From: Thiogranum sp.
Lineage (GTDB): Bacteria > Pseudomonadota > Gammaproteobacteria > DSM-19610
Assembly (NCBI GenBank): GCA_046757125.1
Contig: JBHHXO010000001.1
Location: forward strand, 1-46,112
DNA length: 46,112 nt
Reading direction: 5' to 3'
A program made the position numbers and the translations under genes. Under the pieces are notes generated by a model. It was not told the origin of the DNA. It was given only the letters and a program-made list of their open reading frames with translations, and did not search any database. Shown piece by piece: positions 17,391 to 39,985 of this stretch. How positions within the stretch are numbered: the stretch's first letter is position 1; every line of letters starts with the position of its first letter.

Positions 17391-18317
17391 TTACAGTTGT
17401 GCCGGCTCGCTGCGCAATGCGGCACCGATCGCCAGAAGACAATGCGCAAACGTTTCTGTACCGATGGAATCGTGTATCTCCACAATATCGTCTGCCTGGA
17501 GTCTGTGTACGGGGACACCTACCTGTTGCTCCAGTTGCTCTGCAAGCGGTTCCATGGGAGCCGGCATCGGACACAGTGTAATGGACGTAATGGGTGCTTG
17601 CTGGAAGTGACGGTCGTAATAGTCCATGGAACGCTGCAGTTCCAGCGCCAGCCGGTCGACCAGTCCGGGTGTCTCCTGAAGCTGCCGGTAACCGGTGTCC
17701 ATGCTGCGCGCGAGGTACAGGGTGGCATCGCGTGTCAGCGTAATCAAGCCCTGATCGGCATCGAAATACAGCATGGCCTGTCCATTGGCATCCTGTTCGA
17801 GCTGTGCAGCAATGTTACGTAACGCGAGTTCGGGGATGTCGATGGTTTGCAGCGTGACACCGGCGCGTTCCAGTACTTCGACCTGCTCCCTGACTGTCTC
17901 GGTGCGCGACACCACCACGTACAGGTGTTCCTGCAAGGCACGGGCGCCACTGGGCGGGACATCGAATACGTCCAGTACCGCGTCGTCGATGTGAAAATCG
18001 ATCAGGTCGCGAATACGCCAGCGGATTGCGGCCCTGAGTTCGGATGGAGGTACCTCGGGTGCTTCCACCATCAGTAGCTGGTATTTGCCTATCGCCAGAA
18101 GCGTCGAGCAGCCGGTCTTGCCCAGGCCATGTTCAGCTACGGCCTGTTTGAGGTTTGCTGATGGATCCTGTTCGGGAAGCGACGGATAAAATCCGCATTG
18201 TTCGAGCAGGGGGCGGCCGGATTTGTCCCGCCGTATGGCGGCCACGGCTGCTCCGGCAGCCGACAGGGTCAGCGCGCCCGATACATCCTGTTTGTTTTTG
18301 TTGTTGAACGAGAACAC
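17391..18317 (-). CDS. MshI (N-terminal part)/PilM-like pilus alignment protein
   Basis: YQLLMVEAPEVP...AIRWRIRDLI, IDIPELALRN and LELQRSMDYY resemble MSHA MshI. Confidence 0.75.
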   Translation of the reverse strand: MFSFNNKNKQDVSGALTLSAAGAAVAAIRRDKSGRPLLEQCGFYPSLPEQDPSANLKQAVAEHGLGKTGCSTLLAIGKYQLLMVEAPEVPPSELRAAIRWRIRDLIDFHIDDAVLDVFDVPPSGARALQEHLYVVVSRTETVREQVEVLERAGVTLQTIDIPELALRNIAAQLEQDANGQAMLYFDADQGLITLTRDATLYLARSMDTGYRQLQETPGLVDRLALELQRSMDYYDRHFQQAPITSITLCPMPAPMEPLAEQLEQQVGVPVHRLQADDIVEIHDSIGTETFAHCLLAIGAALRSEPAQL

Positions 18318-18371
18318 ACCTTGTCCTTTGTGTATGTGTTGGAGAAAGAGTCCGGCATTTACCCGGGCATG

Positions 18372-18818
18372 TCAATTGCCGATGACTTCCTGCCAGCGGA
18401 CCAGGGTGACAGTAGTGGCGCCACTCCCGGTGTCGGCGGCGGTCAGGCGCAGGTCGGCGTCCACGGTGCGTCGCGCCTGTGCAGTAGCGGTGGAGCCGAT
18501 GGTTCCCCGTACGCGGACCCGGCAATTGGTGCCTGCCGGAACTGCATCGGAGATGGTAAAGCTGCCGCGCCCTGCACGTGCGGACACGTTTCTCAGTCCG
18601 TGGCAGCCCGCTCCGCTGGCATACAGGAACGAGGCATATTCGATGCCGCTCTCCGCCACGAACAGGGCTTCTACGGAATCGTGCTGTAGCGCCGTGTCCA
18701 GTATGTCCGAGCCCGCCATGCGCTGCAGTGCCGCCAGCATAAGTGCCAGGGTGGTAATAATAAACAGTGCGCCAATGAGCGTGACGGCACCGCGTTGCGT
18801 GCGGAAGCGCTGCGTCAT
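18372..18818 (-). CDS. MshP/PilX-like minor pilin
   Basis: QRG|AVTLIGALFII prepilin-like N-terminus lacking E5; ALFVAESGIE. Confidence 0.65.
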   Translation of the reverse strand: MTQRFRTQRGAVTLIGALFIITTLALMLAALQRMAGSDILDTALQHDSVEALFVAESGIEYASFLYASGAGCHGLRNVSARAGRGSFTISDAVPAGTNCRVRVRGTIGSTATAQARRTVDADLRLTAADTGSGATTVTLVRWQEVIGN

Positions 18819-19336
18819 GGCCGGTTCCTCAGGGCAATGCGCGATCGCTGTGCATAACGGTTGCCGGCGTGATTCAACACCAGTTCGAATTCGATAAAAG
18901 CCACATCCAGGTTGCTGCTGGCAGGGGTGACACCATCACCCTGCCAGTAGTTGAAGGTAATACGGTCCAGTTCATCGCTCAGCGTGTAGGCGCTGCCGTC
19001 GTTGACAGAGGCGTAGGCCATCCGCAGCAGAGAGGCCTGCGCGTCGATGGTGACAGTTTCGGTATCAATTTTTCGGAAACTCAGGATGTCGTTGGGTGCG
19101 GAGACCGGAGTAAGGATTTCCCATCCCCCGCTATTCCCTGTTTCGCGTATTTCGCGCGCCAGGCGTTCACTGCTGCTGCGTAGTTTGCCCAGGGTGTGAA
19201 TAGCGGATGCTGTCGCATTATAGGCACGCACGCCGTTGCCCAGGTAGGGTCCGGCTACCATGCCCAGCAGCGCCAGCATGGTCAGGGTGGTGACCATTTC
19301 CAACAGGGTGAATCCGTCCTGTCGCGGGCGCATCAT
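18815..19336 (-). CDS. MshO-like minor pilin
   Basis: QDG|FTLLEM class III signal; ERLAREIR. Confidence 0.7.
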   Translation of the reverse strand: MMRPRQDGFTLLEMVTTLTMLALLGMVAGPYLGNGVRAYNATASAIHTLGKLRSSSERLAREIRETGNSGGWEILTPVSAPNDILSFRKIDTETVTIDAQASLLRMAYASVNDGSAYTLSDELDRITFNYWQGDGVTPASSNLDVAFIEFELVLNHAGNRYAQRSRIALRNRP

Positions 19337-19749
19337 CAGTAGTCGACCAGAAGAAAAGTAAGCTGCGCCAGGGGCGGGCCGCCGGCGTCCACGCTGACCG
19401 TCACCTGTTTGCAGGGAGTCCCGCCCGGACAGCCGGTGAATCGTGGCGCGGGTGGCCGGGTGATAACGGTCGTTCTGTTGAAGCGGATGAAGTTGCCGGT
19501 GAGAGTTTCCGTGGTGGTGTCTACAGCCAGTTCGGCTGCCGGGCCGTTAAATCCAAGTTCACGCTTGCGTGCCAGCACGAACTCGGCGCGCTCCCGGGCA
19601 AGCTGGGTTGCAGCCTGAATGGCTTCGTTATCGAGCAGGCTGGAAGTGGATTGTGAAAACAGGCCGAACAGGGGTAGTGACGCGACCGATATGATTATGA
19701 TGACCAGCACCATCTCAATGAGCGTGAATCCCCTTTGTGTGCTGCTCAT
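19336..19749 (-). CDS. MshD-like minor pilin
   Basis: QRG|FTLIEM class III signal. Confidence 0.7.
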   Translation of the reverse strand: MSSTQRGFTLIEMVLVIIIISVASLPLFGLFSQSTSSLLDNEAIQAATQLARERAEFVLARKRELGFNGPAAELAVDTTTETLTGNFIRFNRTTVITRPPAPRFTGCPGGTPCKQVTVSVDAGGPPLAQLTFLLVDY

Positions 19750-20234
19750 GGCGTCACCGTTACAAAGCCTGTGACCGGTTGTACGCGGACACTCGCCGTA
19801 TTGCCGCCCGTCCCGGTGAGGATCCAGCCCCGGACCGTGTCGGCGAGAGCGGCGCTGCCAAGCGGGCGCCCCAGGCTGTCGAATTCAACATGTGCGCTGT
19901 TCAGCGTTACCCCGTTGACCAGAAAATAGACCTGTTCTTCACCGGCGGCATTGCGCACGGGTGTCGTGGAGTCGCCATGGGTAATGGCGTAGCTGGTGGC
20001 AGATCGGGTAGCGATGGAAAATGATCGCCCCTGGCTCATTGCCATCGCCTGGGCATGCCGTATCGCCCGACCGAGCTGGTCCGCCTGGGCAGGAACGGTG
20101 GCATCGTTATGCGCAAAGCGTGGAATGGCCAGCGCGCCCAGAGTGGCAACAATGACCATAACAAAGACCAGCTCGATCAGCGTGAAGCCGTTGGGGTGTG
20201 TTACGGAACAGACAGGCCTGTTACAGACATCCAT
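19746..20234 (-). CDS. MshC/GspH-like minor pilin
   Basis: NG|FTLIEL, IRHAQAMAM and FDSLGRP. Start placed at ATG 20234 because the longer frame runs through a terminator. Confidence 0.75.
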   Translation of the reverse strand: MDVCNRPVCSVTHPNGFTLIELVFVMVIVATLGALAIPRFAHNDATVPAQADQLGRAIRHAQAMAMSQGRSFSIATRSATSYAITHGDSTTPVRNAAGEEQVYFLVNGVTLNSAHVEFDSLGRPLGSAALADTVRGWILTGTGGNTASVRVQPVTGFVTVTP

Positions 20235-20251
20235 GTTGTTATCCGCTGAGT

Positions 20252-20284
20252 AAAAAAGGGGCGGGCACGGGCCCACCCCTTTTT
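20252..20284 (-). terminator. Intrinsic terminator after the MshA-like pilin
   Basis: Minus strand AAAAAGGGGTGGGC-CCGT-GCCCGCCCCTTTTTT. Confidence 0.75.
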
Positions 20285-20306
20285 GGCGCCGGCAACCCTG
20301 TAGATA

Positions 20307-20696
20307 TCAGATGGGGGTTGGCGAAGCGCTGCCAACACAGGCGACGGTGGGACTGCCTGTGCTGGTTGGTGAAGTACAGGTGGAATCCGTAAAGGTCGGG
20401 ATGAGGTAATCAACGCCGTTGATGCTGACCTGAATCCCGTCATTGCCGGCGTGTACTGCAGCATTGGCGCTACCGCCGACATCCTGTACCAGTTCGCTGA
20501 CGGTCGGCAGGCGCTTGAGCCGCGCAATGGAAATGGAGTGGGCTGATTTTACTGCATTGCTGGAGCCATCCAGAGCGGCGTGCAGCGCATCATTCTGGAC
20601 ACTGGAAAAACGCGGTACCGCCATAGCGCCTAACAGAGCCAGTATTACCAGCACGGCGACTAATTCGATTAGGGTAAAACCTGTTTGCTTGTTCAT
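20307..20696 (-). CDS. MshA-like (probable major) pilin
   Basis: MNKQTG|FTLIELVAVLVILALLGAMAVPRF, C-terminal Cys pair, AGGAG RBS and a downstream terminator. Confidence 0.82.
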   Translation of the reverse strand: MNKQTGFTLIELVAVLVILALLGAMAVPRFSSVQNDALHAALDGSSNAVKSAHSISIARLKRLPTVSELVQDVGGSANAAVHAGNDGIQVSINGVDYLIPTFTDSTCTSPTSTGSPTVACVGSASPTPI

Positions 20697-20830
20697 CTTT
20701 ACTGATCTCCTGAAAATGGCTGATAGCCCGCACACCTCCACTTATCGTCAAATGTTCGCTATACCTTTAGCCACTCAGTATTTTTCCGGGGTTGCGCGCG
20801 ATTCGCGCCTGCGCGTTTGACGGACATCCA

Positions 20831-21029: not shown

Positions 21030-22250
21030 CTAATGCAATGCTACCCTGGCCAGGTCCCACATGGGCAGAAAGATGCCGGTTGCCAGCAGAAAAACGATGG
21101 CTGCCAGCACCACGGTCAGAACCGGCTCGATCGCCGAGCTGAGTTTTGCGATCGAATATGCCACTTCACCGTCATAATAATCGGCAATTTCCTGCAGCAG
21201 CTCATCGCTCGTGCCCGAATCTTCGCCGACCTGCAGCATCTGCAGGACAAGGTGGTCGAAAACGCCGCTGCCGGCAGCGGTATTACTCAGCGAATTACCG
21301 CGTTCGATACCATCGCGCATGGCCAGCACGCGTTCCTCGATAAAGTCGTTATCCAGGGCGCGGGCAACCACGGTGAGTCCGGTGACGATGGGAATCCCGG
21401 AGCGCTGTACCAGCGCGAACAGGCGCGAGAAACGCGCCAGCGTAGCCTGATAGAGTACCTTGCCGACCACCGGAAGCCGCAACCGGAGTTTGTGCCATTT
21501 GTACCGACCGCTGTCACTCCGGAGGTACATGCGAATACCAACAACCAGTACCATGCCGCCTGCCAGCAGTTCCTGCCAGTGGTTAACGGTCAGGTCGGAC
21601 ATGGCGACCAGGATACGTGTCGGCAATGGCAGGTCGGCGCCGTACCGGGAGAACATGGCGGAGAACGCGGGTACCACGAATACATTGATGACCACTACCG
21701 CGATCAGGATGGCACCCATGACGACGCCGGGATAACGCATGGCAGACCTGATCTGGTCACGGGTCGTTTTCTCGCGGTCAAGGTATGCCGCGAGTTGCTG
21801 AAATACTTCTTCCAGCCGGCCACTGGTTTCGCCGACGCGAACCAGGCTGACATAGAAAACCGAAAATACATCCGGGTACTGGGACAGGGAGCTGGACAGG
21901 TCGCGCCCTGCTTTCAGGCTCTCGATAACGCCTGCCAGTGTTTTTGCCAGCGTCCGGTTGCGAATATTGGCAGCCAGACCGGTGAGGGCATTGAGAATCG
22001 GAACGCCGGCTTTCAGCAGGCTGTGCATCTGGCGACTGAACTGGACCATGTCTGTCAGGGTAACCCCGGCTGGAAAAATATCGGCGAGGTCGGTGCTCAT
22101 GCCGACTTTCTTTTCCACCGCCCGGATATCCACGGGCGTCAGGCCGCCCTCTATCAGGCGTGTGGCGGCGAGATCCGTACTGGCGGCTTCTATGACGCCT
22201 TCAATGGCGTCACCACGATGACCACGCGCCTTGTACTGAAATGCAGGCAT
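21030..22250 (-). CDS. mshG: MshG/PilC/GspF-family inner-membrane platform protein (module B)
   Basis: FSRQMHSLLKAGVP, GETSGRLE, AMRYP, IEP and FLPMWDL motifs. Confidence 0.85.
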   Translation of the reverse strand: MPAFQYKARGHRGDAIEGVIEAASTDLAATRLIEGGLTPVDIRAVEKKVGMSTDLADIFPAGVTLTDMVQFSRQMHSLLKAGVPILNALTGLAANIRNRTLAKTLAGVIESLKAGRDLSSSLSQYPDVFSVFYVSLVRVGETSGRLEEVFQQLAAYLDREKTTRDQIRSAMRYPGVVMGAILIAVVVINVFVVPAFSAMFSRYGADLPLPTRILVAMSDLTVNHWQELLAGGMVLVVGIRMYLRSDSGRYKWHKLRLRLPVVGKVLYQATLARFSRLFALVQRSGIPIVTGLTVVARALDNDFIEERVLAMRDGIERGNSLSNTAAGSGVFDHLVLQMLQVGEDSGTSDELLQEIADYYDGEVAYSIAKLSSAIEPVLTVVLAAIVFLLATGIFLPMWDLARVALH

Positions 22251-23959
22251 TAGTCAACCGTACCGCTGAGGCGCATGGCCTCCGACAGGCTGGTGACACC
22301 CTGCCTGGCATAGTCCAGCGCGTTTTCTATCAACGGACGATAACCGTCCTGGTTGCGCGCGGCGTGTTCAAAACCCGAGGGGTCATTGCGGCGCAGCGCA
22401 TCGGCAAGCGGATAATCTATTTCCAGCAATTCATATACACCGATACGACCGTGATAGCCGGTGTGGTTACACTGGTTACAACCACTACCTTCCTGGAAAC
22501 CGTCCAGCGAGGCATTTTCTCCCTCGATATTGCGCACCCACGCCTGCTCGCTGGGCTCGAGTGCGCGCGCGGTGCGACAGTTGGTGCAAAGCTTTCTTAT
22601 CAGGCGCTGTGCAAGTATGGCCTGGGTCGATGCTGCAACCAGGTACGGTTCAAGACCCATATCGACCAGGCGCATGGCGGTACCCACTGCATCGTTGGTA
22701 TGCAGGGTGGAAAGCACAAGGTGTCCGGTCAGCGCGGCGCGCAAGCCGATTTCGCCCGTTTCCCTGTCGCGCATTTCGCCGACCAGAATGATATCCGGAT
22801 CAAGGCGCAGCGCCGTCCGCAGCACGCGTGCGAAACCGAGATCTATCTTGTTGTTGACCTGCACCTGGGTAACGCGTGCAAGCTGGTATTCAACCGGGTC
22901 TTCAACGGTGATGATTTTCTTCTGTGGTTTGTTCAGTTCGGTGAGCGCCGCGTACAGGGTTGTCGTTTTACCGCTGCCCGTCGGGCCGGTCACCAGCACC
23001 AGTCCGTGCGGCCGGTGTACGATGCCGCGTATGCGTTGCAGGATATCGTCGGGCATGCCGAGCTGATCCAGATTGCGCACCGCCGAGCCATGATCCAGCA
23101 GGCGCATGACGACCGATTCACCGGTTTGTGTCGGTATGGTCGCCAGTCGTACATCGATGCTCTTGTCCAGCACGCGCAGGGAAAAACGTCCGTCCTGTGG
23201 CAGGCGCTTTTCTGAAATGTCCGCTTCGGCCATTAATTTCAGGCGTGATACCATCGCCGATGCAATACGCGTATCTTCCATGGTCGTTTCGTGCAGCACG
23301 CCGTCGATACGACGCCTTATCCGCAGCACGTCCTCGTCGGGTTCGATATGAATATCAGATGCATCCGCGCGTACTGCGTCTTCAAATACGGTTTGTATCA
23401 GACGCACCACCGGCGCGTCGTTGTGATTTCCGCCGGCGGACAGGCTGCGCAGGTCAAAGGCGTTTTCGGCCATGTCCTGGCCGACTTCGCTGGCCAGGTT
23501 GCGTAGCTGATCGGCGTGCTGGTAAAGCCGGTCGATGTTGTGCAACAGCTCGCTTTCCTTGACGCAGGCGATCTGCACCGGGTTTTTCAGGATGCGCACC
23601 AGCTCGTCGAAGGCGAAAATGTCGGTGGGATCACCCATGCCGACCAGCAGGCCGGTCGGTGTTTCCCGGAGTACCAGGGCGCGGTAGCGGCGTGCGTGCG
23701 TTTCCGGCAGGCGCCTGATCAGTTCGGGGTTCAGTTCGAAGCGCGACAGGTCGACGTAGGGAATGTCGAGTTGTTCGGAAAGCAGCACCAGCAGCCTGTC
23801 TTCATCCACGAAACCGCTTTCGATCAGCACGCGCCCGAGCTTGCGGCCACTCTTCTTCTGTTCCGCCAGCGCGTCCTGCAACTGTGCTTCGGAAATCATT
23901 TTGTGTTCGACCAGCAGGTCGCCGATGCGAACGCGTTTTCTGGGCATGGTAGCAGCCAT
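22250..23959 (-). CDS. mshE: MshE/PilB-family assembly ATPase with an N-terminal MshEN c-di-GMP motif (module B)
   Basis: RIGDLLVEHKMISEAQLQDALAEQ...KLGRVLIESGFV, ASDIHIEP, GPTGSGKTT and CxxC...CxxC. Confidence 0.9.
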   Translation of the reverse strand: MAATMPRKRVRIGDLLVEHKMISEAQLQDALAEQKKSGRKLGRVLIESGFVDEDRLLVLLSEQLDIPYVDLSRFELNPELIRRLPETHARRYRALVLRETPTGLLVGMGDPTDIFAFDELVRILKNPVQIACVKESELLHNIDRLYQHADQLRNLASEVGQDMAENAFDLRSLSAGGNHNDAPVVRLIQTVFEDAVRADASDIHIEPDEDVLRIRRRIDGVLHETTMEDTRIASAMVSRLKLMAEADISEKRLPQDGRFSLRVLDKSIDVRLATIPTQTGESVVMRLLDHGSAVRNLDQLGMPDDILQRIRGIVHRPHGLVLVTGPTGSGKTTTLYAALTELNKPQKKIITVEDPVEYQLARVTQVQVNNKIDLGFARVLRTALRLDPDIILVGEMRDRETGEIGLRAALTGHLVLSTLHTNDAVGTAMRLVDMGLEPYLVAASTQAILAQRLIRKLCTNCRTARALEPSEQAWVRNIEGENASLDGFQEGSGCNQCNHTGYHGRIGVYELLEIDYPLADALRRNDPSGFEHAARNQDGYRPLIENALDYARQGVTSLSEAMRLSGTVD

Positions 23960-24021
23960 GGTCTTGTCCGTCAGTCCGGTGTCAGCTTCCGGTTTATACA
24001 GCCGGTGCGTTGTTGAACACG

Positions 24022-24675
24022 CTATCCATGCCGCACTACAAGGGTATAGAGCTGCAGGCGCGTCTCCGCGCGGGGATAGTCTGTAGTCCGGAAATCCACT
24101 TCCTGCCAGAAGAATTTCCAGGGCATTGCCTCCAGCTCCTGCAGGTAACGCAGCAGGTCCGAATAACCGCCTTCGACAACTATTTCAATGTGGTAACGAC
24201 CCAGGCCGTTGCCGCTTTCCTGTTCCCCGGCATCCGGGTCTGTCAGCGGCTCGGTGCGGGCCTGCAGTGATTTCAGCTTCAGTCCGCCGTGGCCGGCAAG
24301 CACCTGCTCGAGCATGTCGGCAGCCTGTGCAGGTTCTACAAGCGCACCCAGCCGGGCAACGATCCTGTCATCGAGCGCATCCCGCTGCGCAACAAGCGCG
24401 TCACGCTTTTGCCGGCGTTCGGTCAGCGGGTCGCGCTCCGATTTGTAATTGAACAGCTCGGCCTGCTGGCGGGTGGCGCCCAGTTTTGTTTCGAGTTCGG
24501 ATATGCGCTGGCTGGAAGCCTGCTGTGCCTTGAGCATGGGCTGTAAAGCGAATGAATCCACCAGCAGATATACCACTATGATAGTCGCTGCCAGTAGCAG
24601 GATGCGTTCGCGCAATTCCAGGGCGTCGATTCGATCCACCCAGCGCTGGATCTGTGCTGTCGGAGCTAGCGCCAT
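24022..24675 (-). CDS. MshJ/GspM-like alignment protein
   Basis: LELRERILL followed by a TM segment and coiled coil; GGYSDLLRYLQELEAMPWKFFW and YP...LYTL. Confidence 0.78.
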   Translation of the reverse strand: MALAPTAQIQRWVDRIDALELRERILLLAATIIVVYLLVDSFALQPMLKAQQASSQRISELETKLGATRQQAELFNYKSERDPLTERRQKRDALVAQRDALDDRIVARLGALVEPAQAADMLEQVLAGHGGLKLKSLQARTEPLTDPDAGEQESGNGLGRYHIEIVVEGGYSDLLRYLQELEAMPWKFFWQEVDFRTTDYPRAETRLQLYTLVVRHG

Positions 24676-25271
24676 GCTACGGTTTCCCCGTGGTTACGCA
24701 GTTCGAAGCGGAGTTGAGGTTTGTCCGGGTCGATGCGGGTCATGGACAGGGTTTCAAACGGGGATGTGGACAGGTCCGGGCGTCTGGCGAGCTGCTGGAC
24801 ATAGGCGGGGACCAGTTTGGCGTCCAGCGTTACACCACGCAGCTCGATCTGTCCTGCGCCGTTGACCTTCACGCCTTCCAGCCACAGGCCGGGTATACGC
24901 TGTTCATCGAGTACACTGAACTGCCCGGCAAAACCCGAGCGATGCCGGGTCGCCAGTCGGTCAAATTGTGTCAGCAGATAGTTGCGCTGATCGATATCAG
25001 CCTGCAGCTGTTCTATTTCCTTATCCAGACCCTGCGTGTCGGGAGCCTGGTAGCCGGCTTCCAGTGAGGCCACCTGGCCCTGCAGGCTATCGAGCTGTTG
25101 CTGCAGGACCGTGGTGGTGCCTTTCATTCCGTCCAGCGTCCAGCGCGCGTGTGCGAGGATAACCAGCAGCAGGACCAGTACCGCAGCGGCGATCTGTGTC
25201 AGCGTGGTTGCGGAAAACACCTTGACCTGTTTTCTGAATACCGGTTGATAGAGATTGATCTGTTGGTGCAT
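24666..25271 (-). CDS. MshI (C-terminal part)/PilN-like protein
   Basis: MHQQINLY, TM segment, coiled coil and GLWL...VPAYVQQL. Confidence 0.75.
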   Translation of the reverse strand: MHQQINLYQPVFRKQVKVFSATTLTQIAAAVLVLLLVILAHARWTLDGMKGTTTVLQQQLDSLQGQVASLEAGYQAPDTQGLDKEIEQLQADIDQRNYLLTQFDRLATRHRSGFAGQFSVLDEQRIPGLWLEGVKVNGAGQIELRGVTLDAKLVPAYVQQLARRPDLSTSPFETLSMTRIDPDKPQLRFELRNHGETVAWR

Positions 25272-26023: not shown

Positions 26024-26119
26024 GGCACGGGATCAGAAGCAAGAAACAGGCCGGGTCGGGAATACGTAATGCCAGCGGCGGCAAGGTTCCGTTTGGAATT
26101 ACATGGTTCAGGGGGAATA

Positions 26120-26145
26120 AAAAAGCCCGCCGAAGCGGGCTTTTT
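26120..26145 (-). terminator. Strong (bidirectional-type) intrinsic terminator after the module A pilin
   Basis: Minus strand AAAAAGCCCGC-TTCG-GCGGGCTTTTT(T). Confidence 0.88.
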
Positions 26146-26196
26146 AAATAAATGTATCCAGAGGCTTTCCGGATAGATCACTCAGATGTGTAGGTG

Positions 26197-31316: not shown

Positions 31317-32856
31317 GATCGATCTCCATGGTGACGCGAAGCTCGAATTCAGCTTCGCTGTCACGGTCGTTGTTGCCTATCGCACCCTGTATGCTTGCAT
31401 CAGCCTGCGTATTGAGTGGCCGGCGGGTTATCGTTACCGCATGGACGCCGGGCCGTTCGGCTATCCACTTCACCAGCCTGTCGATCTGGCTGTGCGCTTC
31501 AACGTAACTGCCGTTGAAATGCCGCAGCTTTCCCTTGATGTGGCTGACCAGGTAGTTATCCATATTCTGGACCCGGTCTGCCTGCCGGGCGCTGTCCTGC
31601 GATGCTGTGGCGGCGTCCTTGTCCGGACTGGCAAACCAGTCGAAGCGTTTCAGCTGCAGGTTGGGCTGGCGTTCGAACGCATTTCCAACCAGGGAGAACA
31701 GGCTGGCCAGGTCGGTCCGGTGAGCCTCCAGTGTATTCGCAAGCTGAATAGCTTCCCGCATGGCACGGGCATCTTCGGCCGTAACCGGTAGCTGACGCGC
31801 CGCCTGTTGATAATTCGTGTTTACCTGTGCTGCTACACTGGCAACGTTGCGTGCTTCACTGGACATCGCCATCCCGTCCACCACATTTATGCCGCTGTAG
31901 GTGGCTGCTGTCACGGCGATCAGCCACATGGCGGCGCGTAAACCGGCCTGCGCGTGCCAGGTGTTCAGCCGCTTCAGGTGTCGTGGCGTGGCGTAGTGAT
32001 TAGGAACCCGGCGGGTATTCAGCAGGTAGGCAAACAGGGCATCACTGATCCGGGCGTCAGGGTGCTCACGAAAACCCGCGCGTTGCGCTATCTCCGACAG
32101 GTTTGCCGGGTGATAACTGATGCCGGTTTCATCCGCGCAGGCAGTGCGCATCGCGTCTGCTCGGGTCGAATCGGTGAGCGCATGGATTTCCAGTTCGGCG
32201 CCGTAGGGGATCAACCTGAGTGTAGTGAGGTAGCGATGCGTTTTGTGCGCCTCGTCCAGGATTATCCTGCAATAGTCTTCGGGCGAAGAGGCGCTGATGG
32301 GTGCAAGGCGGCTGAACAGCACCTTGTTGTCGCACACATACGTCTCGCGCAGACCTTCACCCGGTTGTTCTGTGATAACAAGGATATGGCCGTTGTCTGC
32401 AGCCAGATGCCTGACCAGGTGGTGCGTAATCAGGGGAAGTGAATAGATGCCTGCCAGAGGGATGCGCAACTCGTTCAACAGGTCGAGCAGCGGCTCGACG
32501 TTGTCGCGGTTGGTGAGTGCGCTGAAAAGAACGCGACTGTCGCGGCGTCCCTCTTTCATTCGACCTGTGATGCGGCTGTAACGAAACGGTGTGGTGCGAA
32601 ACAGTTTGTTTGCCTGCCGTTCCTGCAGTCTTGCCCGGTCCCCGCCATAGGCGTGAGGCAGCAGCTCTTCGCGGAATTCTTCTTCTATCAGGTCAACCAG
32701 CAGCGCGACGGGGCGTGCATCCGGGCTGCTCAGCGCCCTGCGCAGCTGCCCGTAGCCTTCCTCGTCGAGCGTGAAACGGCCGCCGGCACTGGCACCGTGT
32801 CGAGCGGCATGAAACAGGGTAATGCTTTTATCGGCGAGATACAGTATCCGGGACAT
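31303..32856 (-). CDS. PilM/PilN(GspL)-like alignment protein
   Basis: ~300-aa cytoplasmic domain, single TM segment and periplasmic domain; follows the platform gene. Confidence 0.6.
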   Translation of the reverse strand: MSRILYLADKSITLFHAARHGASAGGRFTLDEEGYGQLRRALSSPDARPVALLVDLIEEEFREELLPHAYGGDRARLQERQANKLFRTTPFRYSRITGRMKEGRRDSRVLFSALTNRDNVEPLLDLLNELRIPLAGIYSLPLITHHLVRHLAADNGHILVITEQPGEGLRETYVCDNKVLFSRLAPISASSPEDYCRIILDEAHKTHRYLTTLRLIPYGAELEIHALTDSTRADAMRTACADETGISYHPANLSEIAQRAGFREHPDARISDALFAYLLNTRRVPNHYATPRHLKRLNTWHAQAGLRAAMWLIAVTAATYSGINVVDGMAMSSEARNVASVAAQVNTNYQQAARQLPVTAEDARAMREAIQLANTLEAHRTDLASLFSLVGNAFERQPNLQLKRFDWFASPDKDAATASQDSARQADRVQNMDNYLVSHIKGKLRHFNGSYVEAHSQIDRLVKWIAERPGVHAVTITRRPLNTQADASIQGAIGNNDRDSEAEFELRVTMEIDHGTV

Positions 32857-32860
32857 GGCG

Positions 32861-34066
32861 CTACCTCGTTACCGTCCCGAGAATATCGTACACAGGGCCA
32901 AGCACTGACAGCATCACCCAGCCGAGCATGGCGCCCAGTATCAGGGTCAGGGTCGGTTCGATCATGGTTTGCACGCGCTCTATGGATTCGCGCACATCGC
33001 GGTTATAGAAGTAGCTGACGTTCTCCAGCGATGTGTCCAGCGCACCGCTGCTTTCACCTACTTTCATCATGCGCAACACCAGCGGCGGAAACAGCCCGGT
33101 ATTCTCGAAGCTTGCAGTGAGGCCCACGCCTTCGCCAATCTGTTTGCGCACTCTCTGCAGGGCCTCGGCGACCACTTTGTTGCCGACCAGCGATTCGCCC
33201 ATGCGAATACAGTCGAGCACGGTTACGCCGGCTTTATAGAGCAGCGCGAAGTTGCTGGTAAAGCGCGCCAGTATTATTTTCTGGTAGATCGGTCCTACCG
33301 GCAGCAGTCGCAGTTTCAGGCGGTCGACCTGGTAGCGGCCGTTTTCGCTGTAGCGTGCCCAGAAGCGCATACCGAAGAAGATGGCGAGCGGGGCTGCCAG
33401 CAGAATATACCAGTATTGAGTAATGAATTCGGATGCCAGAATCAGTGCCCGTGTATGAGCCGGAATCGATTCACCCATGTTCTGGATAAATCCGACCAGT
33501 TCGGGGACCAGGTATACCATCAGAAACACGATGACGCCTGTGACGATGATACCCACGAATGCCGGGTACATGATGATTTTCCTGGTGTGTGAAGCCAGCT
33601 CGTCCTGCCACTTCAGCGATTCCGTAAGCCGTTGCAGTACGTCAGCGAGCATGCCGCTCTCTTCGCCGGCGGCAATAAGGCTGACAAATATCGGTCCGAA
33701 TATGGCAGGGAAAGCAGCCAGCGCCTGGGAAAGCGTTTTGCCACCCTCTATGTCCTCTATAAGTGAGGAAATGATTTCCCGAAAACGCTGGTTGTCGATA
33801 CTGTCGCGCAGGTCGCGGAGTGAATCCAGGATGGGGACACCGGCCTTGGAAAGTTGCTCCAGGTGGAAACAGAAGGTAACCAGCTCGGGCCGGCCGACGC
33901 GGCTGCGGCGTAAACTGAAGCGGCTGTTGCGAGCCGGTTTGAAATCGATGAGGTCCAGCCCCATGCGGGTCAGGCGCAGCTCGAGGTCATCGTCGTTGCT
34001 GGCCTCGATGCGCCCCAGCACGGTCTTCCCGTAACCGTCTACCGCCTTGTATTCGAATGCTGCCAT
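32861..34066 (-). CDS. GspF/PilC-family platform protein (module A)
   Basis: FCFHLEQLSKAGVP, GEESGML, MYP, GESSGALD and IEP motifs. Confidence 0.9.
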   Translation of the reverse strand: MAAFEYKAVDGYGKTVLGRIEASNDDDLELRLTRMGLDLIDFKPARNSRFSLRRSRVGRPELVTFCFHLEQLSKAGVPILDSLRDLRDSIDNQRFREIISSLIEDIEGGKTLSQALAAFPAIFGPIFVSLIAAGEESGMLADVLQRLTESLKWQDELASHTRKIIMYPAFVGIIVTGVIVFLMVYLVPELVGFIQNMGESIPAHTRALILASEFITQYWYILLAAPLAIFFGMRFWARYSENGRYQVDRLKLRLLPVGPIYQKIILARFTSNFALLYKAGVTVLDCIRMGESLVGNKVVAEALQRVRKQIGEGVGLTASFENTGLFPPLVLRMMKVGESSGALDTSLENVSYFYNRDVRESIERVQTMIEPTLTLILGAMLGWVMLSVLGPVYDILGTVTR

Positions 34067-34090: not shown

Positions 34091-35791
34091 TTACAGGCGA
34101 TCGGTGAGATCGACAACCCTTGCAACTTCTTCCAGTGTGGTGCTGCCATCCAGTACGCGCCGCAGGCCGTCTTCGGCAATGGGCCGGAATTCCTTGCTTA
34201 AGGCGAGGTCGTAAATCTCGCGCCGCGGGGCGCGCCGCGCAATGAGGTCGTCCATGTCGTGGTCCACTTTCAACAGTTCGGTAATTGCCATACGTCCCTT
34301 GTAACCGAAATTGTTGCAGTGATCGCAACCCCGGGCACGGTAGATGACCGTACTTTCACCCTTGTCCAGTCCCAGCAGCTCGGATTCGAGTTCGTTGGAA
34401 GCGTCTTCCTTGCGGCAATGCGGACACAGTTTGCGGATCAGGCGTTGCGCTACGATGCCGATAATATTGCCGGCGAGAATGTCCGGGACTATGCCGAGGT
34501 CGAGCAGGCGCGGTATGGCGCCGACCGCCGAGCTGGTATGCAGCGTCGAATAGACCTGGTGGCCGGTCATGGCGGCGCGCAGCGCCATGTCCGCGGTATC
34601 TTCGTCACGCACCTCACCAACCAGGATAATATCGGGATCCTGGCGCAGCATGGAACGGATGCCGCTGGCAAAATCCAGTTTTGCGGCGGTATTTACCGAC
34701 GTCTGGCGGATCATGGACATGGGGTATTCGACCGGGTCTTCCAGGGTCATGATGTTGACTGACTCGTTGTTCACGTAGTTCAGCATCGAATACAGCGTGG
34801 TGGTCTTGCCGCTGCCGGTGGGTCCTGTTACCAGCAGGATGCCTTCGGGGCGTGCCATCATCAGGCGCAGAGCCGCCAGAGCCGTATCACTCAGACCCAG
34901 TTGATCCAGTGGCACGATACCCTTGTTGCGATCCAGTATGCGCAGCACGATGTTTTCGCCATAGGTAGTCGGTTGTGCGGATACACGAAAATCGATCGGC
35001 CGGCCGAACAGCGTTAACGAGATATGACCGTCCTGCGGTGCACGGGTTTCCGCGATATTCATGCCGGATATGACTTTCAGTCGCACCGCGATTGCCGACC
35101 AGTAGTTCTGGTGCAGGCTGCGCACCTGTCTCAGTACGCCGTCGATACGGTAGCGGATACGCAGGAAGCCGTGCTCGGGCTCGAAATGAATATCGGATGA
35201 ACCTTTCTTGACCGCGTCCGACAGTATGGCGTCGACAAGGCGTACCAGAGGCTGACTGTACTCTTCGGATTCGCCATGCAGTGTGTTGTAATCGACCTGG
35301 CCGGTTTCGATTTCGCGCAGAATACCGTCCACGGACAGTTCAAAACCGTAAAACTGGTCTATTGCGTTTTCAATTTCGGATTCGCCGGCCAGTACCGGGT
35401 GTATATCAATCTGTCCGCCCAGCAGGGCGCGCAGCTGGTCGATGGCGACCACATTGAAAGTATCGGAGATCGCAACGGTCAGCAGGTTTTTCTGCCGGTC
35501 TATCGACAGCGGCATGATCTGGAAGCGGCGTGCGGTATCCTTGCCGACCAGTTGCAGGACTTCAGTATCGACCACGACCTTGCCCAGGTCGACACTTTCG
35601 TGACCCAGCGCTTCACCAAGGACATCGCGTACCACTGCCTCGGTGGCGAAACCCAGGCTGACAATAATTTTTCCCAGTTGCTCCTTGCACTTTTTCTGCT
35701 CGGTCAGGGCGATGTCCAGCTGGTCCTGGGTGAGGATGCCCTTCTCTATCAGCAGGTCACCGATGCGCTTCGGTTTGGCGACGGCGCTCAT
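34091..35791 (-). CDS. GspE/PilB-family assembly ATPase with MshEN motif (module A)
   Basis: RIGDLLIEKGILTQDQLDIALTEQ, SSDIHFEP, GPTGSGKTT, RQDPDIILVGE and CxxC...CxxC. Confidence 0.92.
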   Translation of the reverse strand: MSAVAKPKRIGDLLIEKGILTQDQLDIALTEQKKCKEQLGKIIVSLGFATEAVVRDVLGEALGHESVDLGKVVVDTEVLQLVGKDTARRFQIMPLSIDRQKNLLTVAISDTFNVVAIDQLRALLGGQIDIHPVLAGESEIENAIDQFYGFELSVDGILREIETGQVDYNTLHGESEEYSQPLVRLVDAILSDAVKKGSSDIHFEPEHGFLRIRYRIDGVLRQVRSLHQNYWSAIAVRLKVISGMNIAETRAPQDGHISLTLFGRPIDFRVSAQPTTYGENIVLRILDRNKGIVPLDQLGLSDTALAALRLMMARPEGILLVTGPTGSGKTTTLYSMLNYVNNESVNIMTLEDPVEYPMSMIRQTSVNTAAKLDFASGIRSMLRQDPDIILVGEVRDEDTADMALRAAMTGHQVYSTLHTSSAVGAIPRLLDLGIVPDILAGNIIGIVAQRLIRKLCPHCRKEDASNELESELLGLDKGESTVIYRARGCDHCNNFGYKGRMAITELLKVDHDMDDLIARRAPRREIYDLALSKEFRPIAEDGLRRVLDGSTTLEEVARVVDLTDRL

Positions 35792-36993
35792 GGTGTTTTC
35801 CCCGCTTCCAGTTCCCGGATCCGGTTGTCCAGTTGCCGGGTATTGAACAGCGCGCTGTGGTCGGCGGCCAGTCCCTGTGCCTTCAGGTAATATTCCAGGG
35901 CCTGTTTCTGCAGGCCGAGCTGATCGAGGCTGATTGCCAGGTTGAATGCGTAGTCAGGCTGGATCGGGTCGATGCGCTGTGCTTCAAAGTAGGCTTGCTG
36001 TGCTTCCTTCCACTGTCCCGCGGACGCGTAACGGTTACCCAGGGCAAAGTGAAGCTGGGCGTTATCGCGGTCGCTCTGCAGCCAGTGCTTGAGTTGACTG
36101 GTTTCCTGCAGGCTGTCGCGTGAGTTGCCCAGCGAACCCAGGGCAATCTGTGCGGTTTTGTCTGCCGGGTTGGCTTTCAGTACGCGTTCGTAATAGTAAC
36201 GTGCCACACGCAAGTCTCCCTGGTGCATGGCGATGCCCGCCAGTCCCAGCGCGGCATCACGGCTGTCCGGGTTACGCTTCAGGGCTTTCCGGTAGAGTTG
36301 CTCCGCTTCGACATAGTTTTGTTGCTGGTACGCCTGATAGGCGTTCTGAATCAATGGATGAACAGCCCGGATCCTGCGGCTCCTGTGGATCTCGATGCGT
36401 TGGGCGGGCTGAGCAACGGCTGCATCGGATATGTCGGCAGTTCCGGCCGCCTGTGCGTCTGGTTGCCGGGGTGAGGTCGGCACAGGTGTTGCGGGTACAA
36501 AAGCCGCCGCTGTGCGTTCAGTTACAGCCGGTGCCGGTAACGGCTCGGTGGCCGGCGGCGGGTTAGTCTCCGGAGCCGGGACATCGATCAGGGTTGCCGT
36601 GTGCGGGGTGGCCGGTATCACTACCCGATCACTGCGCCACAGGTAGTAGGCACCTACAATCACGATGATCGTGACAAAACCGGACAGAAAGTACAGGGCC
36701 TTCTTTTGCCAGGCGGTGGCGGGTGTGGCAACCAGCGCAGCAGCTGTTTTTGCCCGCTCCCGGGGTGGCTCCGCATCAGCAGCCTCGTCGGCTGCGGAAT
36801 TTTTATCGACAACGAATGCATCCGTCTCGGTTTGCAGCTCTTCCACCAGTTGCGTCGCTGCATTCAACGGTTCCAGTTGCATGTCAGGCTCATCCGCCGG
36901 CTGTGCCTGTTCTGTTGCGCTTTCGGCAGGGGCCGGCTTGTCCTGTTCCTGCTGCGTCTCTGCCCGGCGCAATGCGTCCATCAAAAGGCTCAA
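35788..36993 (-). CDS. TPR-repeat membrane protein (MshN/GspB-like)
   Basis: MSLLMDALRRAE N-terminus, TM segment, Pro/Ala-rich linker and TPRs (FALGN, YAFNLAISLD). Confidence 0.78.
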   Translation of the reverse strand: MSLLMDALRRAETQQEQDKPAPAESATEQAQPADEPDMQLEPLNAATQLVEELQTETDAFVVDKNSAADEAADAEPPRERAKTAAALVATPATAWQKKALYFLSGFVTIIVIVGAYYLWRSDRVVIPATPHTATLIDVPAPETNPPPATEPLPAPAVTERTAAAFVPATPVPTSPRQPDAQAAGTADISDAAVAQPAQRIEIHRSRRIRAVHPLIQNAYQAYQQQNYVEAEQLYRKALKRNPDSRDAALGLAGIAMHQGDLRVARYYYERVLKANPADKTAQIALGSLGNSRDSLQETSQLKHWLQSDRDNAQLHFALGNRYASAGQWKEAQQAYFEAQRIDPIQPDYAFNLAISLDQLGLQKQALEYYLKAQGLAADHSALFNTRQLDNRIRELEAGKTP

Positions 36994-38621
36994 TTGCGCT
37001 TCCTCTGTTCATTGGCGTAGCGTGGCCCCAGCGGCGCTGTCGGGTCGGGAAGGTAATCGGTATAGGTATCCATTTGTTGATCGATACTGGCGATAACACG
37101 CGGTCGCAGGAAAATAACCAGCTCGGATTTCTTTATCTTGTTGTTGCGGTAGGTGAATGCGTCACCCACGTAATCAAGTTCGGTCAGACCGGGAATACCC
37201 TGGTCATTGAGCTGGATGGAATCCTGGATGAGACCGCCGAGTACGGCGATCTGGCCACTGCGCACGCGCAGTACGGATTCCATCTCCCGTACCTGTATCT
37301 GCGGTATCTGGCTGACAATGTCATTTATCGCCAGCGCCGGGTTGGGGTCGTTCACGAATCCGGTGACACGTGAAATCGTGGGCCGTACGTTCAGGCTGAC
37401 GGCATCTTCGCGGCTGACCTGCGGCGTGACCGACATGACAAAACCGACGGGCACGGTATGCGGCGTACTGGTAAAGGTCGTTTGCGAATTGGTCTGGTTG
37501 GTTACAGTATCGGCTTCCAGCGTGAAGTAGACGACGTTTTCCACCACTTTCAGCAAGGCGGTCTGGTTGTTAATGGCCATGATCTTGGGGCTGGACAGCA
37601 CTTTCACATTGCCGAATTCCTGCAGCATCTTTACCGAACTGGCAATGCTGCCCCAGCTTTTGTTGGTGAGGTAGTCGACGGTAAATACCGGTGGAGAATT
37701 AAGGTTCGAACCCAGCAGCTCCTGCGAAACACTCAGGCCGGTTCCGTTGTCGGCCAGCACCGACCAGTCGACGCCGAACTGGTAGTTATCGTTCAGTTCC
37801 ACCTCTACAACGGTGGCCTCGATCAGGACCTGTCGCTGTGCACTGGTTACCAGGCGGTCCAGGTATTCCTGGATGAGCAGGTGCTGGGCCTGGGTGGCGC
37901 GCGCGGTCAGCATGCCGGTTTCGGCGTTGACAATGACCGAGATATCAACAGTGCTGTCTTCGCTGCCCAGGCCGAGAAAGCTGGCAATGTTGGTGCGCAG
38001 CTGTTTCCAGAACCGGTTTTCCGAGGTGGTCGTTACCGAGGTGCTGGAGCTGTTGGATCCGCTGCTCGATCCCCCGCTGCTGCTTCCGCCGCCGGAACCT
38101 TCCAGGGCAGACTGTCCGGTTGTGGCAATCTGGGTGGAAACGCCGTTGCTGCTGCTGCTGCGGCGGGTCAGGTTGACGTAATCAATATAGTAGCTGCGCA
38201 GGTACGGCTGGTCCGGCTCCACTACCAGCAGGTCGTCCTCGAAGTGATAACGGATCGGCACCTGGGCTGCAATCCGGTCGAGTATCTGCAGCAGTGTCTG
38301 ATCGATCGCGTTGAGGGTGACGGTACCGCTCAGGCCAGGGTGGACGTCGATATTCATTTTGGCGTCGCGCGCCAGCGTGAACAGCAGTTCTGCCAGCGGG
38401 ACCCCGGTAATGACCACGCTGTAGGTTTCCTGCGCAACAGGCGGCGTTGGTTCCGGGACTACCGGCGCACGTGTCACAGGGCTGGGAATTTGCCGGGAGA
38501 GGTGTGAACGGTCCGCTTTCGGAGTGTTTTCCAGGTGCCCGGGTGACGGGCGGTCCGGCGTCGGGACGCAGCCGTACCCCGCCAGTAAAAAGGCCAGCAG
38601 CAAAAATCTAGCTGTATTCAT
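36990..38621 (-). CDS. Outer-membrane secretin, MshL-like lipoprotein
   Basis: Lipobox-like LAGYGC, Ser/Gly-rich insert, RQVLIEATVVEVEL, VLSSPK...NNQ and KSELVIFLRP. Confidence 0.9.
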   Translation of the reverse strand: MNTARFLLLAFLLAGYGCVPTPDRPSPGHLENTPKADRSHLSRQIPSPVTRAPVVPEPTPPVAQETYSVVITGVPLAELLFTLARDAKMNIDVHPGLSGTVTLNAIDQTLLQILDRIAAQVPIRYHFEDDLLVVEPDQPYLRSYYIDYVNLTRRSSSSNGVSTQIATTGQSALEGSGGGSSSGGSSSGSNSSSTSVTTTSENRFWKQLRTNIASFLGLGSEDSTVDISVIVNAETGMLTARATQAQHLLIQEYLDRLVTSAQRQVLIEATVVEVELNDNYQFGVDWSVLADNGTGLSVSQELLGSNLNSPPVFTVDYLTNKSWGSIASSVKMLQEFGNVKVLSSPKIMAINNQTALLKVVENVVYFTLEADTVTNQTNSQTTFTSTPHTVPVGFVMSVTPQVSREDAVSLNVRPTISRVTGFVNDPNPALAINDIVSQIPQIQVREMESVLRVRSGQIAVLGGLIQDSIQLNDQGIPGLTELDYVGDAFTYRNNKIKKSELVIFLRPRVIASIDQQMDTYTDYLPDPTAPLGPRYANEQRKRN

Positions 38622-39985
38622 CCCTGTTCTTCCCTGTGCATGTCCGTGCCCATGGTTTGAAAGCGGGTTCGCAACGGGTCCAGCGAACGTAAATAGGGCT
38701 GGTGTCGTTGTATTCTCTCCGGTAAATCGGCCAGTGCGGCCAAAGCTTTTGTTTTGCTGTCGAATTCACCGAACAGAATATTCCAGCGCTGGCGTCCGGC
38801 TACCTCGCTCCGATACAGGTAAACATCGGGAAGGAGGCTGTTATATAGCGGTTTTTCAAGAAGTTTTTCCACGGTGCGCAAATCGTCGTTCTCGGTCAGC
38901 AATAACTGTATGGTCAGCTGCCTGCCGGCGGGCCGCTGCAGCCAGTCGTTCGAGGCCTGGAGGCGTTGCGATACCAGCGGCAGACCGCCGGAGGAGGGAC
39001 GGGTTTGCAGCGCAATCGCCCGCAATTCGTCAATATTTTGGCTAATTTGGGTGGCCGGGGTGATTGTGTCCGGGGGTGGTGGCGTGTAGTGGTTGAAGAC
39101 GGCGATACCGACAAGCGCAACTGCAGTGCCGGCACCCAGACCCGCAGCGAGACCTCCCGGGAGTAGTTGCGGGCGACCCGGGCTGGCGCCGTCGTAGCGG
39201 GCACGCCAGACATGTTTCCAGCACACGCGGCTGGATTGTGCAGCGAATGCGGCCAGCAGGGCCTTGTCGGCCAGAATATTCAGGCGCCGGATAAGACCGC
39301 GTGAAAATATCGCCAGTAGCCGATAGGCGGTTGCAGTAAAGAGATCATTGCCCCTGTAGCCGGCGCTGTGCAACCTGAAGCGAATGTAGTCCCTGATTTC
39401 CGCCATGCTCAGGGGCGACAGGTTGAAGCAGTGGCTTATGCGGTCGCGCAACTGACGAATTTCATGTTTTTCAATAAGATAGTTGAGTTCCGGCTGTCCG
39501 AACAGCACCAGTTGCAGGAGTTTGCTGTGGCGGGTTTCCAGGTTGGATAACAGCCGGATTTCTTCCAGCGTCTCGAGTGACATCTGCTGGGCTTCTTCAA
39601 CAAATACAACAACCTGTCGTTTGTTCCGGTGCGCTTCCAGCAGATAGTCCTGAAGCTGTTGTTGGAGCTGCAAATGCGGCGTGTCTACACCGGCCGGCAG
39701 GTTCAGTTCCAGTGCTATGGCGGCCAGGATTTCGTTGCGCGTAAGACCGGGATTGGTGAGGTACACCACATCGACAGAGTCGGGCAGCTGATCCTGCAAC
39801 ATATGGCATAGCATGGTTTTTCCGGTGCCGACTTCGCCGGTGACCTTGACCATGCCTTCACCGCGGGTAATGGCATAAAGCAGCGAGTTCAGAACCTCGG
39901 CACGCTGACCGCCACCGAAAAAATGCCGTGTATCGGGTGTGATGCGGAAAGGGGCGGCGGACAGTCCAAAGTGCCTGTTATACAT
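38618..39985 (-). CDS. ExeA/MshM-family AAA ATPase with a C-terminal SPOR-like domain
   Basis: MYNRHFGL..PF, GEVGTGKT, EEAQ, LFGQPEL, a TM segment and a TIQL...ILFGEF...PYLR tail. Confidence 0.88.
   Translation of the reverse strand: MYNRHFGLSAAPFRITPDTRHFFGGGQRAEVLNSLLYAITRGEGMVKVTGEVGTGKTMLCHMLQDQLPDSVDVVYLTNPGLTRNEILAAIALELNLPAGVDTPHLQLQQQLQDYLLEAHRNKRQVVVFVEEAQQMSLETLEEIRLLSNLETRHSKLLQLVLFGQPELNYLIEKHEIRQLRDRISHCFNLSPLSMAEIRDYIRFRLHSAGYRGNDLFTATAYRLLAIFSRGLIRRLNILADKALLAAFAAQSSRVCWKHVWRARYDGASPGRPQLLPGGLAAGLGAGTAVALVGIAVFNHYTPPPPDTITPATQISQNIDELRAIALQTRPSSGGLPLVSQRLQASNDWLQRPAGRQLTIQLLLTENDDLRTVEKLLEKPLYNSLLPDVYLYRSEVAGRQRWNILFGEFDSKTKALAALADLPERIQRHQPYLRSLDPLRTRFQTMGTDMHREEQG

Follow-up and report, generated by a model that had tools for sequence, protein, structure and literature searches.

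The stretch of DNA analysed here (hereafter the window) comprises 46,112 nucleotides, positions 1 to 46,112 of contig JBHHXO010000001.1 in assembly GCA_046757125.1, a metagenome-derived genome of Thiogranum sp. (hereafter G000) that is 99.45% complete and consists of 382 contigs. Scans of 33 open reading frames with Pfam and NCBIfam models revealed, between pyrD and ntrC, a block of 24 co-oriented minus-strand genes running from 39985 to 17391 and encoding parts of two type IV filament machines, one of them related to the mannose-sensitive haemagglutinin (MSHA) pilus. An earlier interpretation made from the letters of the DNA (the sequence-only reading) had listed two assembly ATPases, two platform proteins, two pilin sets (5 + 3), one ExeA/MshM-like ATPase, one tetratricopeptide repeat (TPR) protein and a single secretin, and this inventory was confirmed by the family scans, which located the only secretin of the window at 36990-38621. 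As also stated there, the window contains neither PilT nor a prepilin peptidase (PilD); both were found on other contigs. The two T2SSE ATPases with MshEN domains (22250-23959 and 34091-35791) are 39% identical, and the two T2SSF platforms (21030-22250 and 32861-34066) 31% identical; the block also holds an ABC ATPase and an ABC-2 permease. Both assembly ATPases score under the cut-off of the PilB model TIGR02538, so that no type IVa (PilB/PilMNOPQ/PilT) system is assigned in the window; the type IVa pilus (T4aP) genes of the genome lie on contigs C5, C62, C123 and C150. The block divides into module A (17391-25271) and module B (25277-39985). Module A reads mshI2, mshJ, a 62-bp gap, mshE, mshG, five pilin genes and mshI1, as follows:

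24666..25271, minus strand: mshI2 (PilN-like); PilN Pfam match, orthologues in congeners
24022..24675, minus strand: mshJ (PilO/GspM-like); family scans and congener mshJ searches
23960..24021, minus strand: scar of the deletion of mshKLMN (about 4.3 kb), an eroded remainder of the 3' end of mshN; alignment over 64 columns to the mshN end of locus L195 shows 7 substitutions and 2 one-base indels
22250..23959, minus strand: MshE ATPase with tandem cyclic di-GMP (c-di-GMP) motif; NF053729 at 73.7 bits (cut-off 38), motifs intact, MshE clade
21030..22250, minus strand: MshG platform; family scans, congener loci
20307..20741, minus strand: MshA-position major pilin; N_methyl, position in congeners
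19746..20276, minus strand: MshC-position minor pilin; family scans, position in congeners
19336..19749, minus strand: MshD-position minor pilin; family scans, position in congeners
18815..19336, minus strand: MshO-position minor pilin; family scans, position in congeners
18372..18818, minus strand: MshP tip pilin, 148 aa, with its inserted domain lost in frame
17391..18317, minus strand: mshI1 (PilM-like); PilM_2 and TIGR01175 matches

Module A is a canonical MSHA locus that has lost mshK, mshL, mshM and mshN through a real deletion, which upholds the gap noted in the sequence-only reading. Its ATPase groups with those of canonical I-J-K-L-M-N-E-G loci (support 100 in a FastTree tree that contains no V. 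cholerae sequence), and an MshG platform and an MshA-type pilin set stand in one locus. Cognate MshM and MshN are absent, and the only protein of G000 that passes the MshL model TIGR02519 is a module B-clade secretin, leaving module A with no cognate MshL. With type II secretion system (T2SS) models, module A stays under the cut-offs (TIGR02533, 543.8 vs 630.25; TIGR02120, 315 vs 424; TIGR01710, 29.2 vs 88.85), and it has no GspD or GspC. The lost block comprises the secretin, MshK, an ExeA-like ATPase and a TPR protein. Pfam assigns to MshK the GspB domain T2SSB (PF16537, over cut-off), which rules out regarding MshK as simply PilP-like. GspB pairs with GspA/ExeA in secretin assembly. Judged by its domains, the block lost from module A is one functional unit, a secretin with dedicated partners.

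No separate mshKLMN locus, the finding named in the sequence-only reading as contrary to it, was detected in the genome. Congener MshK, MshL, MshM and MshN used as tblastn queries (86 of them MshK) retrieved no orthologue in G000; the best matches of the MshM and MshN queries, at 43%, were to ExeA paralogues, and the sole T2SSB match in the genome is the 3' half of exeB. Family scans and congener queries together rule out mshKLMN elsewhere in the genome. The genome-wide secretin count, proposed in the earlier work as a check, gave the window secretin and four other PF00263 matches: PilQ (C5), GspD (C24), a TPR-secretin (C159) and a 286-aa protein (C78). The TPR-secretin (L004:349-2229) is a 627-aa lipoprotein-like protein with N-terminal TPR repeats, outside any visible filament locus, and the C78 protein (L005:1423-2280) is a short secretin-like protein with similar matches in several congeners. 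Misassembly at ~25275 or at 23960-24021, the other concern raised, left no sign and is ruled out by Logan contigs of run X1, labelled hydrothermal vent metagenome, which cross both junctions (23755-24836 and 24832-26235) with 0 differences among the matches listed. The depth of X1 is 5-10 over both modules except at two peaks (a repeat and an ATPase core); this run is possibly the source sample, and represents an independent assembly, not an independent organism. Two other runs, X2 and X5, contain too small a part of the stretch to be of use.

The distribution of the deletion was examined in relatives. Among 34 members of the genus, mshJ was found in 26 and the locus was read in 25. In 22 of these, mshK and/or mshL follow mshJ; in G000, G047 and G005, mshE comes directly after it. 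The joints are not alike: the gap measures 62 bp in G000 and 4 bp in G047, and in G005 the former start of mshK is fused in frame to mshE. The breakpoints leave mshJ and mshE intact in all three genomes. Eighty further mshJ loci from metagenomes comprised 69 that go on with mshK, 10 without downstream DNA and one duplicate of a counted locus. One of the 69, L212, keeps mshK but has mshL and mshN as broken remnants only, and L221, a sister of G005, ends on the same joint as G005. At the locus G000 and G047 are sisters (support 100/98). By contrast, in the gyrB and housekeeping trees G000 groups with G042, a genome that has kept mshKLMN, and this conflict suggests that the locus may have recombined. 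G000+G047, G005 and L212 do not form one clade (approximately unbiased tests, p 3e-5 and 2e-98 against a single clade), which rules out one deletion spread by transfer. Other departures from the canonical order were seen. Loci L032, L227, L238, L254 and L259 run from K-L directly to mshE, with mshM and mshN absent and the secretin kept, and L289, L290 and L270 are re-ordered, with K-L-M-N upstream of mshI1, N-E-G displaced and mshJ split from I1-I2 by an inversion.

The same arrangement occurs outside the genus. In 400 genomes of the class, mshJ was present in at least 134 and an MshL-like secretin in at least 193 (150 of 233 matches listed). Thirty mshJ loci left unclear by the class lists were read; G313 and G433, of the Berkiella-like family f123, showed the order I1-I2-J-E-G-pilins; the remaining loci had the canonical order, had been re-ordered or were truncated at contig ends. 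In f123, 23 of 36 genomes have mshJ, and 22 were read: in 17 loci, spread over four genera, mshJ is immediately followed by mshE (mshJ is split in one of them), mshKLMN is present in four, and one locus ends at a contig edge. MshL was found, among the read genomes, in the four mshKLMN bearers only, and neither an MshL-like nor a module B secretin was found in any of 24 genomes of the four secretin-less genera. The secretin-less f123 ATPases form one clade and keep their motifs (one Walker A variant was not matched). PilQ is the only secretin in the near-complete G313, G433, G439 and G456, and further secretins occur in G449 and G463. A complete pilMNOPQ was read in six genomes and a complete pilBCD in three. 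Homologues of one G313 pilin at 52-58% identity are named Candidatus Berkiella. For Berkiella, published work lists pil genes with no word starting 'msh' (PMC9803151), and reports no T2SS apparatus genes apart from pilD (PMC6617341). Trees and joints together indicate that loss of mshKLMN has at least three origins in the genus, plus one, ancient, in f123.

The secretin of the window belongs to module B, as shown by its 66-92% identity to B copies in the search of the 34 genomes, compared with about 30-35% to true MshL, and by its position in the tree. Both the secretin and the ATPase tree (FastTree) separate a B clade from an A clade, and the module B proteins form their own clades outside canonical MshL and MshE (support 100 in both trees), with a placement relative to PilB/GspE that long branches make unsure. 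Several congeners hold both secretin types, 6-15 kb apart, and most carry A and B with two secretins. In Duganella/Pseudoduganella the modules stand head to head, each with its own secretin (two MshL matches in 5/5 genomes, three of them mapped). Two secretins being the usual state of the tandem, the presence of only one in G000 reflects a derived loss, and the composite system suggested by the sequence-only reading, in which two filaments share one channel, is not a purpose-built one. Moreover, the loss is fixed in f123 with no MshL-like secretin of either type, so that sharing the channel of module B is not needed as an explanation. The other suggestion made there, that module B builds a periplasmic filament, is ruled out: the secretin is its own and occurs in 57/57 B loci having at least 5.2 kb of upstream DNA. 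Module B is then the complete machine and module A the candidate periplasmic one. As for the earlier claim of an undescribed system, the real lack of mshKLMN points to an undescribed state, whereas the single secretin reflects a derived loss and is that of module B. In gene order, module B consists of:

38618..39985, minus strand: ExeA/MshM-like AAA ATPase, 455 aa; AAA_22 and TIGR03015 matches, first B gene in congeners
36990..38621, minus strand: MshL-family secretin of module B, 543 aa; TIGR02519 at 252.3 bits (cut-off 250.2), B clade, apart from A-type MshL
35788..36993, minus strand: TPR protein, MshN paralogue; TPR Pfams, profile match to MshN (probability 99.9)
34091..35791, minus strand: assembly ATPase with MshEN domain; intact Walker A/B, His box and two CxxC, clade apart from MshE
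32861..34066, minus strand: platform protein; T2SSF x2, 80 related loci
31303..32856, minus strand: fused MshI1+MshI2 (PilM+PilN)-like scaffold, 517 aa; profiles match the N-terminal part to MshI1 (probability 87) and, weakly, the C-terminal part to MshI2 (probability 22)
30690..31364, minus strand: PilO/MshJ-position membrane protein; one transmembrane helix and position, profile match to MshJ not significant
30256..30693, minus strand: small periplasmic protein (145 aa), probable MshK counterpart; profile match to MshK (probability 61, P 8e-5, best of four pairings tried)
29101..30255, minus strand: large PilX-like pilin, 384 aa; pilin-like N-terminus, paralogous to 28409-29104
28409..29104, minus strand: minor pilin; N_methyl
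27645..28412, minus strand: ABC-2 permease; PF12679
26890..27639, minus strand: conserved, uncharacterised membrane-anchored protein that travels with the permease; Atlas gives unnamed clusters at 0.98 and TPR clusters at 0.89 (a lead only)
26197..26868, minus strand: probable major pilin; N_methyl, hairpin with U-run after the gene
26110..26200, minus strand: terminator-like hairpin after the B pilin; z -4.9, 0/200 shuffles as stable
25277..26023, minus strand: ABC ATPase, 5 bp upstream of mshI2; PF00005

Module B has an MshL-family secretin, an ExeA-like ATPase and a TPR protein, as in the MSH class, and profile comparisons identify it as an MSHA paralogue; its 145-aa protein gave nothing against MshK by plain BLASTP and a weak match by profiles only. 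All 80 B loci kept from a GTDB scan carry its ATPase; the permease is present in 24, and in 16 an A gene lies no more than 10 kb away. Among titled relatives, those nearest to the B platform (71-85% identity) are labelled Thiogranum, Thiohalobacter or, more generally, Gammaproteobacteria. By gene content and phylogeny, module B is a complete, widespread and uncharacterised MSHA paralogue, common in Beta- and Gammaproteobacteria, and it likely makes its own filament through the one secretin of the window. Its ABC trio is possibly comparable, by description, to Myxococcus PilGHI. In several congeners (L053, L058, L014-L015, L049) module B lacks this trio, and its major pilin is divergent (about 40% identity). 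The hairpin separates the B pilin from the ABC ATPase, remnants of which persist upstream of mshI2 in G001, G009 and G046, where the rest of B is lost, perhaps holding the msh promoter. Rearranged MSH-like clusters described in the Betaproteobacteria Sideroxydans and Gallionella (PMC3770913) are similar by description, module B being likewise rearranged and often accompanied by an ABC ATPase, a permease and a third protein.

The tip genes of the secretin-less loci were also altered. MshP is 143-148 aa long in 3/3 secretin-less congeners, as opposed to 316-467 aa in the 14/14 full-length genes of congeners with mshL; a fifteenth gene, in G048, is split by a frameshift. The short MshP is predicted to adopt a complete pilin fold with its last strand kept (predicted local distance difference test score 88). 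The closest folds to the model are GspK and ComZ, the best match being GspK (Z 10.0, root-mean-square deviation 2.4, 95 aligned residues); Foldseek gave no match at E 0.001, and a wider search found pilins. The insert of the 450-aa form of MshP is a predicted beta-propeller, flanked by short GC-rich microhomologies only. Two unrelated, swappable inserts occur in the genus (L035:744-2093 and L039:11846-12793), the beta-propeller (442-467 aa) or a shorter, all-different domain (316-320 aa), even in close relatives. In f123, the one mshL-bearing member read that far, G465, has a DUF6701 (MshQ-like) gene after mshP, and none was found at that place in 12 inspected secretin-less loci. A DUF6701 search of G000 gave no match, a weak negative since control genomes gave none either. 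Wherever tip genes of secretin-less loci were readable, the tip domain or the MshQ-like gene was gone too. In most secretin-less f123 loci (L304-L323) mshP is followed by a conserved gene of 470-640 aa with no evident signal peptide.

Selection on the retained genes was assessed as dN/dS (omega), for which purpose-written code of the GY94 type (F3x4) was used instead of codeml. For the ten genes of module A, comparison of G000 with G047 gave pairwise values of 0.09-0.34. All ten are unbroken in G000, G047 and G005, where about 9 stops each would be expected under neutrality over 0.05 substitutions per site. In L212, omega of the mshN remnant is about 0.9, with 3 stops over its 483 bp (about 0.15 substitutions per site), mshK is relaxed (0.77), and the retained genes have no stop in 4.3 kb (about 17 expected), with E+G at 0.10. 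Six f123 pairs gave omega < 0.1, at a dS that is saturated there as in other distant pairs. On the G000+G047 branches omega is raised for I2+J (0.28 vs 0.13), E+G (0.10 vs 0.06) and the pilins (0.20 vs 0.13), and not for mshI1, the B core or housekeeping genes. Denser sampling placed this rise on G047 and the stem, with G000's own branch at background (0.061); the rise in G005 is partly genome-wide (housekeeping genes, p 3e-4). Convergent substitutions shared by deleted lineages amount to 0-3 sites per gene, compared with up to 1 in housekeeping genes, and are uninformative as to a new partner surface. These values indicate that the motor, platform, scaffold and pilins of secretin-less loci are under purifying selection.

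The pore and the tip domain were lost together and the rest is conserved, which fits a switch from surface adhesion to a periplasmic job. We consider there to be an even chance that module A, a secretin-less and adhesin-less MSHA core, builds a c-di-GMP-gated periplasmic endopilus. From what is known of the family, MshE would bind c-di-GMP and polymerise MshA at MshG on a tip complex of MshC, MshD, MshO and MshP; PilD of the genome would process the pilins, and PilT/PilU might retract the filament. This filament would be short and work in the periplasm like the type II secretion endopilus, presumably never emerging as an adhesive surface pilus. Whether it would push cargo out through a borrowed secretin (that of B, or PilQ) or act with no channel at all seems about evenly balanced. 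In V. cholerae, delta-mshL cells have no surface pili, MshL being needed and MshM and MshN not (PMC4624765). In pilQ pilT mutants, filaments are assembled and stay trapped inside the periplasm, and the T4aP of monoderms form in the absence of PilQ and PilW (PMC10191384).

Several observations weigh against a periplasmic role. Every checkable lineage keeps PilQ and a full pilMNOPQ operon, which would provide a secretin to borrow (G005 has no PilQ match, in a genome 87% complete). The raised omega in G047 and the G005 lineage fits partial relaxation, and the background omega of the G000 branch, with a scar little diverged, means that the deletion may be young in G000. A short MshP also occurs in ordinary loci with a separate MshQ (G032, G465), and the lost tip domain is a putative adhesin, so called from fold and position only. 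The link to tip loss comprises three independent events; mshP of L212 is off-contig, and the f123 contrast has one mshL-bearing member.

Module A could instead make a surface pilus through a borrowed secretin, namely the pore of B with its MshK-like adaptor in G000, or PilQ/PilP in G000 and the Berkiella-like family, which we regard as rather unlikely. Each lost gene has a B counterpart (ExeA, secretin, TPR and, by a weak match, MshK), the B secretin is kept in G000, G047 and G005, and the modules are neighbours in the genus and in Duganella. Precedents are the hybrid of XphA/XqhA with the Xcp system (PMC6567927) and the two pili made by one machinery in Thermus (PMC13039148). However, borrowing from B leaves the fixed loss in f123, which has no B, and the loss in L212, from a clade without B at the locus, unaccounted for, and tip-domain loss is not predicted by borrowing. 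On the branches with the deletion, the rate of the B secretin does not change significantly (p 0.1 and 0.41), conserved MshI2 and MshJ residues were lost in deleted lineages, and V. cholerae MSHA is not rescued by the other secretins of that species (PMC4624765).

That module A is dead in G000, its secretin block recently deleted and its remaining genes not yet decayed, is unlikely. The locus is deletion-prone, congeners having lost or broken B (G007, G009, G048) or lost all of A (G021); no more than 7 substitutions and two compensating indels separate the G000 scar from L195; and background omega on the G000 branch fits a very recent loss. G000 and G047 also differ in scar length and MshP linker, and their deletions could be separate. 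Nevertheless, their sister position at the locus and their shared loss of conserved mshJ residues (G213V, Q108R) favour one older event. The ten unbroken genes in each of three genomes contrast with the stops expected, a second, in-frame and fold-preserving deletion in mshP is improbable under decay, and the losses in f123 and L212 are left unexplained. An assembly or binning artefact, with mshKLMN present in the organism and missing from a metagenome-derived assembly of 382 contigs whose stretch was recovered in one run only, is extremely improbable: the gap is internal to a contig and retains a recognisable mshN scar, an independent assembly runs across it, and other genomes show it again.

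Module A was compared with known systems. With MSHA of Vibrio cholerae and the MSH class of Denise et al. 2019 (PMC6668835) it shares MshI1/I2, MshJ, MshE with its c-di-GMP motif, MshG, five pilins in MSHA order, the lack of peptidase and PilT in the locus, and congeners with the full I2-J-K-L-M-N-E-G run. It differs in that its genome has no mshK, mshL, mshM or mshN, no MshQ-like gene was found, the MshP tip domain is deleted and mshI1 follows the pilins. The T2SS endopilus (Gsp/Xcp/Pul) is likewise periplasmic, as proposed for the module A filament; the MshP model matches GspK best, and no retraction ATPase stands in the locus. Unlike a T2SS, module A has no GspD/GspC, its ATPase is in the MshE clade and its GspE/F/G matches are below cut-off; moreover, G000 has its own T2SS on C24 and C55. 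In the orphan GspC-D pair XphA/XqhA of Pseudomonas aeruginosa (PMC6567927) a core machine also works with an adaptor-secretin pair encoded elsewhere, but there the native pair is kept, whereas in module A it is deleted and the machine is pilus-derived. Monoderm type IVa pili, for example of Streptococcus sanguinis (PMC10191384), assemble without secretin and TPR partner, whereas the secretin-less MSHA hosts have an outer membrane and an intact PilQ machine.

In the MSH class, mshL and mshM are mandatory, with a quorum of 3 mandatory and 4 genes in all (PMC6668835). mshA, mshE, mshG and accessory genes might reach this quorum, hiding the secretin-less variant among MSH or generic calls, and annotation tools would probably label it an ordinary MSHA locus or a fragment. 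The literature searched, which did not extend to subscription papers and supplements such as S6 Table of Denise et al., yielded no paper on a secretin-less MSHA locus, and this points to an apparently undescribed state. A core surviving without a secretin, repeatedly and for very long in one family, would imply a filament with a periplasmic job or routine secretin borrowing, either of which would be new for pili. To our knowledge, all type IV filament systems of two-membrane bacteria are considered to have a secretin among their core components. The repeated losses would be natural experiments on a surface pilus becoming an endopilus. More tentatively, and on the doubtful side of even, they may define, for bacteria with two membranes, a new class of type IV filament machine: a core derived from MSHA that lost its secretin module and tip adhesin on at least 4 independent occasions to become a c-di-GMP-switched periplasmic piston, replaying the pilus-to-endopilus transition behind type II secretion and perhaps standing in for the T2SS in Berkiella-like bacteria.

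A promoter scan returned 4 sites, compared with 8.8 expected by chance. Upstream of mshA, at 20846-20915, lies a perfect inverted repeat with 27-bp arms (z -10.4), related pieces of which occur at 12 places on 10 contigs, resembling REP elements. Another filament-like locus, L295 (G049 C16), encodes a further secretin (467 aa) that follows a PilM-like gene and three small genes.

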